IMG/VR virus record: IMGVR_UViG_2667527588_000007
Coordinates: 1 to 41,084 of that record
DNA from: a virus
Lineage: Duplodnaviria > Heunggongvirae > Uroviricota > Caudoviricetes
Reading direction: 5' to 3' (one strand)
Length of the DNA stretch: 41,084 bases
Shown: piece by piece, positions 3,194 to 35,626 of the stretch
Layout of the letters: every line of letters begins with the position of its first letter
Position numbering within the stretch: position 1 is the first letter of the stretch
Notes under the pieces: generated by a model
Databases searched by the model: none
Seen by the model: only the letters and a program-made list of their open reading frames with translations
Told to the model about the DNA's origin: nothing
Position numbers and translations under genes: made by a program

Positions 3194-4068
3194 ACCCCTA
3201 CCTCTTCGAATTCCAATTCCAATTGATCACCCCAGATTTCACATGACTCTGAACACGAACCGGTATCGAATCGCCTGGCCTGTACCATCGCCTGATACAA
3301 ATTTCTGTAGTCGCTGTTGGCAGACATTCTGGCAATTCCGTCAAGCGTCAGGTGACCACGGTACATAATGTCTTTACCTGTTCTGCGATGACCATCCCTG
3401 ACGTGTTTGCCTGTAACCAGCTCATTAAAAACTCGCATCAGACCTGGTTCGTCTTTACATGCAAGCCCCAGCTTTTGCGTTGACTTTTTGATGCAGAAAA
3501 CACAGTTCCCGAGATGCTCCGGGATTTGCAAATCAAAAGGTTGTTTTCGCCACCACCGGATAACATCCGACTTATCAAAATCTGACAGCTCGGCAAGATA
3601 CCGGACGCCCGATTTCGGTTTCAGCCTACGGGGTTCGTCTGCACGAATACCCAGCCATGTGATGTAATTACCTCGCCCGAAATGGTTATCGCAGTATTTC
3701 GTGAAAGGGATGAGTTTTAGCCTGTCAGTACAGAACGCGCCGCCGATGTATGGCGTGCCGTACTTTTTAACCATGTCCATAAACGGTTTAAGCACCGGCA
3801 TTCGTGTCTGAATATCCTTTGGCTCCCATTCTGTATAACCATTTGGCTGCCCAAGCTCAGGATTTATATCGACCTGTAACACAGTTAGTGGTATGTCCCA
3901 GAGCTTTACAACCTCCCGGATAAAGCGGTATGTCAGCGGATGTTCGCAACCGGTATCCATAAAGATGTAGCAGACGTTATTGCCAGCCTTTCTTTGTTCT
4001 TCCATCAGGTGAACAAGATATGCGGATGTTCTCCCGCCAGAAAAACTAACTACATGAGTTATGCACAT
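3190..4068 (-). CDS. phosphoadenosine-phosphosulfate reductase family protein (PP-loop ATP pyrophosphatase fold)
   Basis: Start chosen at MCITHVVSFSGGRTS (PP-loop SGG-x-x-S motif near N-terminus); longer ORF-track start would overlap the upstream gene by over 100 nt. Confidence 0.7.
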   Translation of the reverse strand: MCITHVVSFSGGRTSAYLVHLMEEQRKAGNNVCYIFMDTGCEHPLTYRFIREVVKLWDIPLTVLQVDINPELGQPNGYTEWEPKDIQTRMPVLKPFMDMVKKYGTPYIGGAFCTDRLKLIPFTKYCDNHFGRGNYITWLGIRADEPRRLKPKSGVRYLAELSDFDKSDVIRWWRKQPFDLQIPEHLGNCVFCIKKSTQKLGLACKDEPGLMRVFNELVTGKHVRDGHRRTGKDIMYRGHLTLDGIARMSANSDYRNLYQAMVQARRFDTGSCSESCEIWGDQLELEFEEVGV

Positions 4069-5975: not shown

Positions 5976-6443
5976 TTTGCTGCTCCTCATCATATCGACC
6001 CTGCAAGGTCGGTTAGTTTCTCCACAAAACAGAGAAGAACACCTGCGGTGGCTGCCGCCCGGATGGATTGGGTTATGAGCCCGTCGTCCGGTGATGCTCT
6101 TCTCTGTTTTGTAAAAAGGACGGTACCAGCCGGAAGCAAGGGTACAAGCTGGTACCGCCAAGACTACACACAGCATAAAGTTGTGGTGCCGGGTGCCTCC
6201 CGGTGCCTGGCGAAGGTTGCACACCAGGCGGGTGGGTATCCACAGAAGGTCGACTGTCAGCCTCAACCTTAACCCGCGTGCGCTGAGCCGCATTCACCAC
6301 AACGCTAAGGATTCTCTCTGGTTGAAAATACTTAGCTGTTATGTGCCTGCTTTTAGCCACATCAGGCGAGGTGGACCTAGTTATTCCCCAACAACAAGGA
6401 TTCGGTTAATCTGGTTATCCCCAACAACGCAAAAGGAAAAGAA

Positions 6444-6878
6444 ATGTCCGGTAATATCTATACGCTGTACAAATCCCACTGTGAAAATGTTGGAAAGTAT
6501 CGGGGCATTGAAATCAGTGGGGTAGTGTCATCAGTCGAAATAAGCAAAGTTGAATCAAGGGCAACATTACTTACTCTTCTGGACCTTGTCTTACATGAGC
6601 ACCGGAAGAAATTCGGCACTCCCTATAATCAGTTGAATGGGAAAAAGGCTCTGGTTCACCTTATTCTGATGAAGCATCACTGGATGCCAAAACAGATTAA
6701 TGAGATGAAATTTGATGAACTTCTTCTTTCAATTCAGGATGAACTCACACTTGATAAAATAAGCGTAACCGCCCAGAAATTTTTAGATTATCGAGACTGG
6801 AGATCACAAATTCATCACTTTGATGATTTTGACGAAAATGAATGGGATCCTAATTTGTCTGCACAATATCTAAAGTAA
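6444..6878 (+). CDS. hypothetical protein (AT-rich accessory gene in immunity region)
   Basis: 144-aa ORF with AAGGAA RBS, visibly AT-rich relative to neighbours; opposite strand to the leftward early operon. Confidence 0.6.
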   Translation: MSGNIYTLYKSHCENVGKYRGIEISGVVSSVEISKVESRATLLTLLDLVLHEHRKKFGTPYNQLNGKKALVHLILMKHHWMPKQINEMKFDELLLSIQDELTLDKISVTAQKFLDYRDWRSQIHHFDDFDENEWDPNLSAQYLK

Positions 6879-7056
6879 CATCCTGTGATAAAACCGTGAT
6901 TTCCTGATCCAGTTTTTTTAAGGAGTCTATTGTTTCCTGTCGATAAGACAGCACTTCACGAAGCTGGTTTATAGCTGCCAGCTTCTTTGTCATCCACTCA
7001 TAAATTTCCTCATCTGTGTAGCCAGGCGCGACGATTTTGGGTTCTGTTTTGTGCAT
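6850..7056 (-). CDS. hypothetical small protein (first gene of leftward operon)
   Basis: ATG at 7056 preceded by AGGAG RBS at 7-nt spacing; 68 aa; track start at 7071 is TTG; 3' end overlaps the 6444-6878 gene convergently by 29 nt. Confidence 0.55.
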   Translation of the reverse strand: MHKTEPKIVAPGYTDEEIYEWMTKKLAAINQLREVLSYRQETIDSLKKLDQEITVLSQDVTLDIVQTN

Positions 7057-7104
7057 TTCACATCTCCTCAAGTTATCAGTTACTTGTTGATGGGGACCAG
7101 ATTG

Positions 7105-7137
7105 TTAAAGAGCTAAGCGTCCTGTAGGGCGCTTTTT
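7105..7137 (+). terminator. intrinsic terminator-like hairpin followed by T-run
   Basis: GCGTCCTGTAGGGCGC stem-loop followed by TTTTTTG. Confidence 0.4.
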
Positions 7138-7290
7138 TGTTGCTAACGAATCATCCTGGACTTCATATGCCCCAGGCGGCTACTTCGTGGGCGTCCTGCC
7201 TGTTCGTTTTTGACATTTACTGACTGCTTACGACACATGCACCGTGTTGCAACCAGATTTTGTTGTAATCCTGTAGTTGGTCTGGAACAA

Positions 7291-7319
7291 AAGATAAAAT
7301 TAAATTGCGAGATATGCAA
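7291..7319 (-). promoter_or_regulatory. candidate leftward early promoter (PL-like)
   Basis: On minus strand TTGCAT, 17-nt spacer, TATCTT; -35 lies within an operator repeat. Confidence 0.35.
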
Positions 7320-7341
7320 GTGATATTTGCGAGATATGCAA
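7305..7341. promoter_or_regulatory. OL-like operator: two direct copies of TTGCGAGATATGCAA (TTGC-N7-GCAA)
   Basis: Identical 15-mers at 7305-7319 and 7327-7341, 22 bp centre to centre; same TTGC-N7-GCAA architecture occurs in the cI-cro intergenic region. Confidence 0.6.
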
Positions 7342-7351
7342 ATTTATAGGT

Positions 7352-7375
7352 AATAAAAAGCCACCTTTCGGTGGC
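7352..7375 (-). terminator. intrinsic terminator downstream of cI
   Basis: GCCACC-TTTC-GGTGGC hairpin with U-run on the minus-strand transcript, 20 nt after the cI stop. Confidence 0.6.
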
Positions 7376-7395
7376 CGATGGATGGGATATTGAGG

Positions 7396-8088
7396 TTAAT
7401 TATGTCTCTTAAGGGTTTGCGACTGACTGATTAAGACCTTTCCAAAGACCATGAATCGGTGTTCGTTTTCGCTAGTAATTCCCCATTCACGGTAAATCTG
7501 GTTATCAGAAATCACCAGCAGTTTGTCAGGAATCATTTGAAGTCTTTTAACGTATATTTTGTCATCAAAACCAAAGACATATATACCATCACCATCAAAC
7601 TGATTGATGCTGACATCAACGAAGATGAGATCTCCTGGCTCAATGGTTGGACACATACTGTCCCCACGAACGTTGATAACTTTGATGTGATTGGCTGGTC
7701 GTCCGCCGAACATTGATACAGCATTATCAGTTCTGTATTCGATGGCATGAATCACATCAATGACATCACCGCCCTGGATAAGGCCATTTCCCGCACTGGC
7801 ACTGATATCCAGCATTTCAATACGGAACACATCCTTCACCTGCGCAACATCCTCATTGTTACTGTTTTTATATACAGTATTACTTTTGTGGGCAGAGGTA
7901 AAGAGATCAGCAATATCAACACCTAAGCTCTTGGCAATATTACTCAGTGTTTGTTCGGTAAATTGTTTTTGCTTACCCGTTTCTAAGCGCGAGATGTTCG
8001 CCGCATCTACTCCTATCGCTTCAGCGAGATCGGCGATTTTCATGTTCTTCGCTTGGCGAAGTTGTCTGACTCGGTTTCCTATGTTCAT
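7396..8088 (-). CDS. cI: CI-type prophage repressor (XRE HTH + S24 LexA-like peptidase domain)
   Basis: N-terminal HTH (RVRQLRQAKNMKIADLAEAIGVDAANISRLETG), C-terminal S24 signature (GDSMCPTIEPGDLIFVD ... KRL); divergent from cro; no SD before ATG. Confidence 0.9.
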   Translation of the reverse strand: MNIGNRVRQLRQAKNMKIADLAEAIGVDAANISRLETGKQKQFTEQTLSNIAKSLGVDIADLFTSAHKSNTVYKNSNNEDVAQVKDVFRIEMLDISASAGNGLIQGGDVIDVIHAIEYRTDNAVSMFGGRPANHIKVINVRGDSMCPTIEPGDLIFVDVSINQFDGDGIYVFGFDDKIYVKRLQMIPDKLLVISDNQIYREWGITSENEHRFMVFGKVLISQSQTLKRHN

Positions 8089-8185
8089 GCGTTTATTACA
8101 TTTCTTTATTGCGTGATAAGCAAATCAACTTGCGCAAAATAATTGCGTGAAATAACATGCATAACGCGCAATATTTGGAGGGCGT
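8089..8185. promoter_or_regulatory. OR-like operator/promoter region between cI and cro
   Basis: TTGCGTGATAAGCAA (8109-8123) matches TTGC-N7-GCAA; candidate PR -35 TTGCGC (8130-8135) and -10 TAACAT (8153-8158); GGAGGG RBS for cro. Confidence 0.55.
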
Positions 8186-8446
8186 ATGCAATCACCATTA
8201 CGAAATGTGCGTAAGGCGCATGGTTTCACTTTGCAGCATGTTGCTGCGGGTGTTCAAGTCAATCCAGCGACGTTGAGTCGTATTGAGAGGCTGGAGCAGA
8301 TTCCATCTATCGAGCTTGCAGAACGTTTAGCCAATTTTTTTAAGGGTGAAGTCAGCGAAATGCAGATTCTTTATCCGGCACGTTTTCAATCTAGCCAAAA
8401 CCAGAATGGGTTTAAACCACAGGAACAGGAGGTGAACCGTGGGTAA
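8186..8446 (+). CDS. cro: Cro-like HTH regulator
   Basis: 86 aa; HTH QHVAAGVQVNPATLSRIER; divergent from cI; strong RBS. Confidence 0.8.
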   Translation: MQSPLRNVRKAHGFTLQHVAAGVQVNPATLSRIERLEQIPSIELAERLANFFKGEVSEMQILYPARFQSSQNQNGFKPQEQEVNRG

Positions 8447-34400: not shown

Positions 34401-34975
34401 CAAACGATGATTACATCCGTCTGTTGTCGGCACTGTTGCCCCCCGGTCCGGCGTGGTCAGCCAGCGATCCGGCGATTGCCGGTGCGGCACCGTCATTAAC
34501 CCGCGTTCATCAGCGTGCGGATGCCCTGATGCGGGAGCTGGATCCGCGCACCACCACTGAACTGATAAACCGCTGGGAGCGTCTGTGCGGTCTGCCGGAT
34601 GAATGTATTCCCGCAGGGACACAGACCCTTCGCCAGCGTCAGCAACGGCTGGATGCGAAGGTTAACCTGGCGGGCGGCATCAACGAGAATTTTTATCTTG
34701 CACAGCTTGCTGCCCTGGGCAGACCAGACGCTACCATCACGCGATACGACAAAAGCACGTTCACCTGCTCATCGGCCTGTACTGACGCGGTGAATGCGCC
34801 GGAATGGCGGTATTACTGGCAGGTCAACATGCCAGCCGCCACAAACACCACCTGGATGACATGTGGCGATCCCTGTGATTCCGCGCTGCGTATCTGGGGC
34901 GACACCGTTGTCGAATGTGTGCTTAACAAACTCTGCCCGTCGCATACCTACGTAATTTTTAAATATCCGGAGTAA
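34391..34975 (+). CDS. tail protein, DUF2313 / YmfQ-like (Mu gp48-like)
   Basis: 194 aa; recalled similarity to e14 YmfQ-type proteins; precedes tail fibre. Confidence 0.6.
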
Positions 34976-34978
34976 TCC

Positions 34979-35626
34979 ATGCATCGTATAGACACGAAAA
35001 CCGCGCAGAAGGATAAGTTCGGCGCGGGTAAGAACGGTTTTACCCGTGGTAACCCCCAGACAGGCACGCCTGCCACCGATCTGGATGATGACTACTTTGA
35101 CATGTTGCAGGAAGAACTCTGCAGCGTGGTGGAGGCATCCGGTGCCAGCCTGGAGAAGGGGCGAAACGACCAGTTGCTTACCGCGCTTCGTGCTCTGCTG
35201 TTAAGCCGCAAGAATCCGTTTGGTGATATCAAATCGGATGGCACGGTGAAAATGGCTCTCGAAAACCTTGGTTTGGGAGAAGCGGCAAAACGGAATGTGG
35301 GGACAGGAGAAAATCAGGTACCGGATATGAACAACTTTGGTAACTCATTGACCGCCAATGGATACCAGAAATTACCTGGGGGGATGATTATTCAATGGGG
35401 GAGTTTTTCTGTCTCACCAACCGGAGGAAGTGTTGGAACAGTTGATATAACATTACCTGTAGCTTTCCCTGCTGCTTGTCGTTCGGTAAACGCTCTTATT
35501 TCAACTAATGATCCTTCTGCCCGTTCTGTGGGCTTTGATATTGGAAGTACCAACAGAACTAAAATCAGATTTACTTACACTTCTGCTACAACAAATTCAA
35601 TTTACTGGATGGCTGTGGGGTATTAA
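34979..35626 (+). CDS. tail fibre protein (constant N-terminal part plus variable C-terminal part in current orientation)
   Basis: 215 aa; ORF crosses the left inversion site at 35258-35281 in frame. Confidence 0.75.
35258..35281. repeat. left recombination site of invertible segment (gix/hix-like)
   Basis: CTCGAAAACCTTGGTTTGGGAGAA; inverted relative to 37081-37106 with 2 central mismatches over about 20 bp. Confidence 0.7.

Follow-up and report, generated by a model that had tools for sequence, protein, structure and literature searches.

A convergent, overlapping pair of ECs1072-family and YdfC-family genes as a candidate two-gene accessory cassette in the sieB slot of lambdoid prophages

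Sequence comparison indicates that two convergent, overlapping genes in the immunity region of an SfIV/Kati/mEp460-type lambdoid prophage form a mobile two-gene accessory ("moron") cassette that occupies ~6429-7096 in the sieB slot of this SfIV/mEp460-type backbone. Positions are those of the window, by which we mean the whole stretch of 41,084 nt that was analysed (virus record IMGVR_UViG_2667527588_000007). The large gene (6444-6878, plus strand, ATG start) encodes a 144-residue protein of the ECs1072 family, and the small gene (6850-7056, minus strand, ATG at 7056) encodes a 68-residue protein of the YdfC family, both as given in the ORF list. A GAGGAG ribosome-binding site (7057-7070, minus strand) stands 7-8 nt upstream of the start codon of the small gene. 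The coding 3' ends of the two genes share 29 nt (6850-6878, both strands), with both stop codons included. The initial annotation had described the two ORFs, their coordinates and the 29-nt convergent overlap, all of which the ORF list and the sequence bear out, and it was equally right in calling the large gene AT-rich, as is the small one: the GC content is 38.2% in the large gene and 40.6% in the small gene, compared with 50.1% in the whole window. Both ORFs proved to be real, conserved genes, arranged as a convergent overlapping pair that adjoins PL. Recurrence of the pair in distant prophages makes it probable that we are dealing with a two-part accessory module and not with a chance overlap.

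The immunity region around the pair has the expected landmarks of a lambdoid prophage. A cI-type repressor gene (7396-8088, minus strand), recognised by its HTH and Peptidase_S24 domain matches, is succeeded by cro (8186-8446, plus strand, from the ORF list). Two exact copies of TTGCGAGATATGCAA were located by sequence match at 7305-7319 and 7327-7341 (minus strand), and related copies occur between cI and cro at 8109-8123 and 8157-8171. These operator copies place OL/PL at ~7300-7345 and therefore make the 68-residue gene the first gene of the PL operon. A putative PL promoter (TTGCAT-17-TATCTT, minus strand) can be picked out by eye within 7305-7341; the sigma-70 promoter scan did not call it. 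A terminator predicted at 7359-7376 on the minus strand would end the cI transcript. Downstream of the cassette, the PL operon contains an STnc100-like sRNA region (6110-6333, minus strand; Rfam RF02076), whose match spans the full length of the model with 43.4 bits against a gathering score of 47 (E 1e-7). A weak DicF match (19.4 versus 48 bits) falls at 6118-6172, and the STnc100-like region has its own hairpin and U-run at ~6111-6160. The fold z of this conserved, highly structured non-coding stretch is -5.4 on the minus strand and -2.25 on the plus strand, and past it the PL operon continues with yfdP and then yfdQ (DUF2303).

Homologues of both proteins stand together, convergent and overlapping, in other prophages. 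A pair in a metagenome contig (L004) has 52% identity to the window in the large as well as the small protein, overlaps by 44 nt and has the same plus-strand terminator on its 3' side as the window pair. In the L095 lineage (38% identity for the large and 39% for the small protein, 35-nt overlap), the pair adjoins an S24 repressor gene, and a strong PL-like promoter lies directly upstream of the small gene. Other pairs reside in the late region: between Q-region genes and the holin gene in Serratia quinivorans (L014; 33% and 16%, 74-nt overlap), and between the Q antiterminator and holin genes in ST64B (30% and 21%, 71 nt) and in Klebsiella phage KPP5665-2 (27% and 18%, 95 nt). The large ORF is unannotated in the latter two phages, and the small one is known as sb50 and GP45, respectively. 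The sb50-type small proteins are linked to the YdfC-type proteins by hhalign (90.9% probability, E 1e-6), and reciprocal HMM matches agree. Scans of viral contigs seeded on the window proteins returned near-identical copies only; for the ST64B type, the large protein of ST64B retrieved 80 viral contigs, and the pair was present in all 80, with overlaps of 53-95 nt.

With the 29 nt of the window included, the overlaps between homologous pairs measure 29, 35, 44, 53, 71, 74, 83 and 95 nt. In every paired case the small gene has the orientation of the lytic operon, whether this is PL or the Q-to-holin segment, and the large gene opposes it, and the identities of the large and small proteins fall in parallel across the paired lineages. 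Pairing persists at identities as low as ~30%, both in the immunity region and in the interval from Q to holin. Because 3' overlaps recur between the homologous genes of lineages 27-52% identical to the present one, we conclude from sequence conservation that the overlap of the large and small genes is not a chance feature. Close to the overlap, TGGGATCCTA (6843-6852, both strands), within which the small ORF stops (TAG), is what is left of the palindrome TGGGATCCCA, by which W-D-P is encoded in both proteins of the late-region pairs.

These pairings bear on a rival explanation, in which the two genes are functionally independent, one a stand-alone moron and the other an ordinary early-left gene of the dicB-operon type, and the overlap is a compaction at a recombination joint that has no regulatory meaning. 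We regard this as possible but on the doubtful side. It does not readily explain why members of both families recur side by side in three backbones that are unrelated, at two different positions in the genome and with their divergence in step, nor why the late-region type was paired in every contig retrieved. By contrast, independence is favoured by the fact that both families also occur alone. Solo large genes were found in L002, in the chromosomal, non-phage L096/L097, in the Rac-like L098-L100 and in L101; Qin-type phages have YdfC without the large gene; and in E. albertii the small gene is frameshifted, with the adjoining large gene intact. Because of these solo large genes, the solo YdfC and the frameshifted small gene of E. 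albertii, the partnership of the large and small genes is facultative and not obligatory.

The same occurrences weigh on a toxin-antitoxin-like or abortive-infection pair, in which the large protein would be toxic or death-triggering and would be neutralised by a labile small protein, by its mRNA or by both, perhaps with RNA-level control through the convergent overlap as in 3'-overlapping type I systems or in P22 sieB/esc/sas. We consider such a pair quite unlikely. Solo large genes are common, a chromosomal non-phage one among them, and both these and the intact large gene beside a frameshifted small gene are hard to square with an obligatory antidote.

The small protein is a member of phrog_1744 and, as judged by several comparisons, a homologue of YdfC from the Qin prophage. 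A tblastn search aligned 97% of its length with annotated ydfC at 39-41% identity (E 2e-9, 19 phage records), and the two share the motif M-x-K-x-EP...Y..(D/E)E(I/L).EW. The HMM of the small family matches the YdfC of L102 at E 7e-35, a sequence that is itself among those from which this HMM was built. The small protein is acidic and coiled-coil-like in appearance, and in the YdfC literature we found no assigned function (10.1101/2025.03.22.644768). The genomic contexts may also be alike: ydfC belongs to the Qin dicB operon (ydfA-ydfB-ydfC-dicF-dicB), and like the small gene it lies in a repressor-controlled leftward operon, where the sRNA downstream is DicF in Qin and, in the window, the candidate STnc100-like RNA, with a match just below the gathering score and a weak DicF match. 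In a Qin-type phage the 3' end of ydfC is likewise overlapped by a convergent ORF bearing a sieB-type leader, but this ORF encodes 67 residues with CxxC motifs and is unrelated to the ECs1072 family.

The distribution of the pair in E. coli delimits the cassette. The segment 6376-7150 is essentially complete in 408 of 5426 complete E. coli genomes (~7.5%), and another 471 of the 5426 have the flanks only (6376-6428 and ~7097-7150). The prophages examined that have flanks only possess other plus-strand genes at the same start offset. This alternative cargo encodes 171 aa in strain Ec42 and 167 aa in WP3-W18; PhiR29_1 has the same 171-aa ORF as Ec42, annotated there as 243 aa from an upstream start; mEp460 has a 122-aa cargo at the slot, and SfV and SfII have still other genes. 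No YdfC-like gene was found in the alternative-cargo prophages examined, and therefore in this backbone both genes come and go together. That the SfIV/mEp460 backbone has a YdfC-like gene only alongside ECs1072-family cargo is a further argument against functional independence. The cassette is bounded by a conserved leader, of which 6376-6428 is common to prophages with different cargo, and by a plus-strand terminator, contained in the segment 7097-7150 that is common to prophages lacking the cassette. The ribosome-binding site of the small gene falls within ~7063-7097, where cassette-specific sequence passes into the flank common to other prophages.

The leader ties this slot to sieB. An invariant element of 30 nt, GCCTGCTTTTAGCCACATCAGGCGAGGTGG (6345-6374, plus strand), is the same as that found upstream of sieB in lambda and P22, and it contains the interleaved inverted repeats GCCTG/CAGGC and CCAC/GTGG. 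In lambda the element lies 55-85 nt upstream of sieB (L265 598-628). When 56 nt of lambda around the element were used as query, P22 matched with 98% identity, again upstream of sieB, and matches were present in 151 phage records; the element precedes many unrelated plus-strand cargo ORFs. The rest of the leader (6375-6443, plus strand) has two CCCCAACAAC repeats, which parallel a doubled ACCCCTACAG in lambda, and a Shine-Dalgarno sequence (AAGGA) before the ATG of the large gene. A promoter scan of the leader did not recognise a sigma-70 promoter for the large gene. Two candidate roles for the element were considered: an extended -10 promoter (TGGTATCTT), whose -10-like part is not kept in the window or in lambda, and an RNA pseudoknot, the stems of which never vary, so that covariation gives no sign for or against it.

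Convergent ends are found at this position in several phages. Lambda sieB (34482-35036, plus strand) abuts N (35037-35438, minus strand) with 0 nt between them, P22 sieB and gene 24 converge with a 20-nt gap, and rac10 and rac11 of Rac-SA53 overlap by 39 nt. The architecture noted in the initial annotation is therefore standard for the sieB slot, and its comparison with sieB holds, given the upstream element of the large gene and the convergence of lambda sieB itself with the N gene that it abuts. Convergent ends that abut or overlap are the rule at this slot, irrespective of which genes occupy it, and this also lends some weight to functional independence. The likeness of the large gene to lambda sieB/N and P22 sieB(esc)/24 extends to position, to topology (a rightward accessory gene that converges on the first gene of PL and is, in the case of the large gene probably, expressed by the prophage) and to the upstream element at 6345-6374. 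The large protein, however, is unlike SieB: it is soluble and modelled as all-alpha, not a membrane protein, its sequence is unrelated, and searches of Pfam, NCBIfam and PHROG gave no match to SieB (a membrane protein of ~190 aa). The convergent partner differs as well, being here a YdfC-family protein that travels with the cargo and in lambda an N-type antiterminator. The parallel drawn with rexAB did not stand. The rexAB genes are on the cI strand between cI and PL, whereas the present genes are on the other side of OL/PL with one of them on the opposite strand, and homology is absent, with no PADLOC or Pfam match.

Ranade and Poteete are said to have described, in 1993, the escape of a SieB phage from its own exclusion by way of Esc and the sas antisense RNA. 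The SieB protein itself acts in exclusion and is expressed from the prophage (PMC10461980). Two further reports treat it as an abortive-infection protein that the phage encoding it evades by this Esc and sas route, and document control by the sas antisense RNA for P22 sieB (PMC7067206, PMC12197685). Occupancy of the slot of an abortive-infection protein is thus a point in favour of a toxin-antitoxin-like pair.

The large protein matches NF033230 ("ECs1072 family phage-associated protein", NCBIfam) with 157.8 bits against a cut-off of 70 (E 1.7e-46), its residues 4-144 aligning with profile positions 2-142, and it also matches phrog_5286 (E 1.5e-90). A profile search over 1.84 billion representatives yielded 76 representatives at 50% identity, nearly all of them 145-155 aa long. 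In an alignment of 47 family members, W134 is the sole invariant residue, and L50, R54, L64, G66, A69 and H72 are nearly so. The protein is hydrophilic and soluble (GRAVY -0.47, pI 6.4), and the AlphaFold (AF2) model obtained with a deep alignment is all-alpha and compact (pLDDT 94.7, pTM 0.89). A fold search with this model gave no match and no solved relative, and Foldseek on BFVD returned nothing at E <= 0.001. For both proteins, PDB sequence-profile searches returned nothing, PADLOC-DB 2.0 gave no family at E <= 0.1, Pfam gave no family, and the NCBIfam and PHROGs matches were to families of "unknown function" only. Profile and structure searches thus assigned the proteins to catalogued families (NF033230, phrog_5286 and phrog_1744), and for neither protein did they find a matching fold or a Pfam or PADLOC family.

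The string RSQIHH (residues 120-125) had been noted as a looser R-x4-H match, which would make the large protein a HEPN-like RNase with R-x4-6-H in a four-helix fold. This string is the only point in favour of such an activity. R120, H123 and H124 vary within the family and are not conserved even among close relatives, so the R-x4-H idea fails; a HEPN-like fold was not found, and as a family feature the HEPN assignment is refuted and deserves almost no credence. The pair also departs from type II toxin-antitoxin systems, the genes being convergent and not co-directional, and no toxin-antitoxin family or fold was found in these searches. This result, together with the fact that the large protein does not have the character of a type I toxin, which would be small and hydrophobic, counts against a toxin-antitoxin-like pair in general.

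The extent of the transcripts can be predicted from their terminators. An intrinsic terminator, AAGCGTCCTGTAGGGCGCTT followed by TTTTTGTTG, is predicted on the plus strand beyond the small gene (7115-7134), at the place where the L004 pair has its counterpart, and a weaker candidate is predicted at 6960-6985 (plus strand). In the other direction, the PL transcript must cross the whole of the large gene in antisense. With these predicted terminators, each transcript would therefore run antisense across the entire opposing gene, well beyond the 29 nt of coding overlap. Reciprocal antisense control between the two genes, as the initial annotation had suggested, is on this footing plausible. Convergent architecture with a full predicted antisense overlap is likewise what a toxin-antitoxin-like pair with RNA-level control might display.

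We propose that the large gene is read rightward behind the sieB-type leader, probably in the lysogen and independently of PL, and that its transcript would end at the predicted terminator at 7115-7134. The small gene would be read leftward as the first of PL, in a transcript that runs on through the large gene, the STnc100-like RNA and yfdP. The two mRNAs would then be fully complementary over ~700 nt and could damp each other reciprocally through transcription collision and RNA duplex formation. The balance may be tied to repressor occupancy of OL: a repressed PL would tip it towards the large protein, and induction or infection towards the small one. We further suppose that both proteins act together. 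By analogy with the slot, the lysogen would express the large protein as an effector, whose most likely role is in superinfection exclusion or abortive infection, with the small coiled-coil protein perhaps serving as its cognate modulator or self-immunity factor. We favour an effector with a small modulator because of the sieB slot and the conserved partnership. That the two genes constitute a functionally coupled accessory module with antisense cross-talk is, in our estimate, an even proposition.

Expression data exist for the homologous pair of ST64B, which corresponds to the window pair by profile-level matches and by its 71-nt convergent overlap. It differs in lying between Q and holin and not in the immunity region, and in having no sieB-type leader. 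Owen et al. (2020, PMC7067206) report that the large gene, STMMW_20121, has a promoter of its own from which it is transcribed, antisense to the lytic genes, under nearly all conditions, and they flag it as a lysogen-expressed candidate accessory gene. Table S5 of that report places STMMW_20121 at 2090066-2090500 and STMMW_20131 (sb50) at 2090430-2090789. These genes match the ST64B ORFs exactly, with lengths of 435 and 360 nt, a gap of 161 nt after the holin gene and the same overlap.

Over 17 conditions in Salmonella lysogens, the TPM values tabulated there are 61-269 for STMMW_20121, with 4.9 in late stationary phase, and 23-258 for STMMW_20131. Those of the holin gene stay below 16, except for ~32-33 under peroxide and nitric oxide shock, and those of the neighbouring Q gene are ~2-7 in eleven conditions (PMC7067206). 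In the RNA-seq data of this source, both genes of a homologous pair are shown to be expressed, and strongly so, during lysogeny, an observation that a toxin-antitoxin-like pair would accommodate. Since the two ST64B genes are transcribed together in lysogens, any antisense effect there would be modulatory and not all-or-none. From InSPI2 to peroxide or nitric oxide shock, STMMW_20121 falls from 269 to 113 or 105, and STMMW_20131 rises from 108 to 148 or 258 (PMC7067206). These opposite shifts agree with reciprocal control, but the population was partly induced and the evidence is weak.

A more specific form of the coupled module, which we put forward tentatively and hold to be unlikely, is a two-component prophage exclusion system. 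The effector would be expressed from the sieB-type leader, and an antisense-encoded small antagonist would be switched on by the resident lytic promoters (PL or the late operon), thereby turning the effector off. Such a system could be seen, by analogy, as a split-gene counterpart of P22 SieB/Esc/sas in Escherichia, Shigella, Salmonella, Klebsiella and Serratia prophages. BstA of prophage BTP1 (PMC8585504) offers another parallel, again as an analogy only, in being a lysogen-expressed defence gene of the immunity region with a cognate self-immunity element; in BstA, however, this is a DNA element inside its own gene and not a separate convergent protein gene, and BstA is unrelated to the pair in sequence and structure. 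An exclusion system with built-in self-immunity, if confirmed, would add a compact new defence module and, with it, a natural case in which convergent transcription acts as a switch coupled to the lysis-lysogeny state. Otherwise, the genes are still a well-delimited pair of function-unassigned families.

Both families were already catalogued, as hypothetical only, and the large gene of ST64B has been singled out as a candidate accessory gene. In the literature searched, as far as its accessible text extends, we found no description of the pairing with a YdfC-family gene, of this cassette as an occupant of the sieB slot downstream of the sieB-type leader, or of the exchangeable nature of this slot. 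Our comparisons point to the sieB position of lambdoid prophages as an exchangeable slot, in which a common leader and terminator accompany many unrelated, uncharacterised genes. Relatives of the cassette are present in Salmonella and Klebsiella prophages. The large homologue in ST64B has one of the highest transcript levels of any prophage gene in Salmonella lysogens (PMC7067206) but is unannotated in the ST64B phage record.

Many otherwise unrelated plus-strand cargo ORFs in the PL regions of lambdoid phages share a common leader, which corresponds to the upstream element of sieB. This sieB-type leader occupies 6345-6443 in the window, 598-685 in the lambda locus (L265) and 901-956 in the P22 locus (L266), and it recurs at positions 2932 and 3839 of locus L101, at 3611 of the Rac-like locus L098, on the minus strand of L102 (the Qin-type phage vB_EcoS-813R8) and in loci L006, L007 and L268. 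Nine short leaders carry a hairpin located 2 nt 3' of the sieB-type element, and the Shine-Dalgarno sequence forms the 3' arm of this hairpin. Since the stems covary among the short leaders (CUUGG/CCAAG, CCUUC/GAAGG, CCUUAC/GUAAGG, CCUCU/AGAGG and CCUUUU/AAAAGG), their sequences suggest translational control by sequestration of the Shine-Dalgarno sequence. By contrast, the leader of the window and of lambda is longer and duplicated.

A conserved non-coding segment of the window (5976-6375) includes an STnc100-like region on the minus strand (6110-6333). This region aligned with the whole Rfam STnc100 model at 43.4 bits, just under the threshold of 47 (E = 1e-7), and is 77% identical to ST64B. 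It contains a hairpin and a U-run at approximately 6111-6160 and a weak match to DicF at 6118-6172. The order of a ydfC-like gene, an sRNA and downstream genes in the window mirrors the ydfC-dicF-dicB arrangement of Qin. At 6205-6235, the STnc100-like region also harbours a second, degenerate version of the sieB-type element (GCCTGGCGAAGGTTGCACACCAGGCGGGTGG), whose conservation extends to over 100 related loci. We also found a near-perfect long inverted repeat, ACAAAACAGAGAAGA ... TCTTCTCTGTTTTGT (6036-6110), that separates yfdP from the STnc100-like terminator and forms a stem of about 25 bp in folds of both strands.

At the overlap of the convergent genes, the homologous pairs located between Q and holin share the palindrome TGGGATCCCA, which includes a BamHI site (position 3391 in L014 of Serratia quinivorans and 2747 in both L183 of ST64B and L184 of Klebsiella phage KPP5665-2). 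This palindrome translates to W-D-P on either strand and, therefore, both late-region proteins feature WDP at the overlap. A degenerate copy is present at 6843-6852 of the window, and the small ORF terminates inside it.

In vB_EcoS-813R8 (L102 2684-2887, minus strand), a convergent ORF of 67 aa, which has CxxC motifs and a sieB-type leader, overlaps the 3' end of ydfC by 36 nt. This topology is identical to that of the window pair, but the cargo differs. In the E. albertii locus L003 (1105-1312, minus strand), a frameshift splits the YdfC-like gene, placing residues 1-48 and 47-68 in separate frames next to an intact large gene. This split gene could be a pseudogene or reflect an assembly error.

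The ECs1072-family gene is unannotated in the phage records of ST64B (NC_004313; L183 2345-2779) and KPP5665-2 (L184 2318-2791); the ST64B gene is annotated as STMMW_20121 in Salmonella D23580, with high expression. Immediately 3' of the solo ECs1072-family gene in the Rac-like loci L099 and L100, a 96-aa ORF (3654-3965, plus strand) has its own sieB-type leader. This ORF gives a weak HMM match to the middle portion of the ECs1072 family (E about 3e-7) and could represent a partial paralogue.

A plus-strand tRNA gene (1369-1441, 71.8 bits) close to the window's left end is probably the attachment-site tRNA, because a tRNA-Pro adjoins the integrase in phage Kati.
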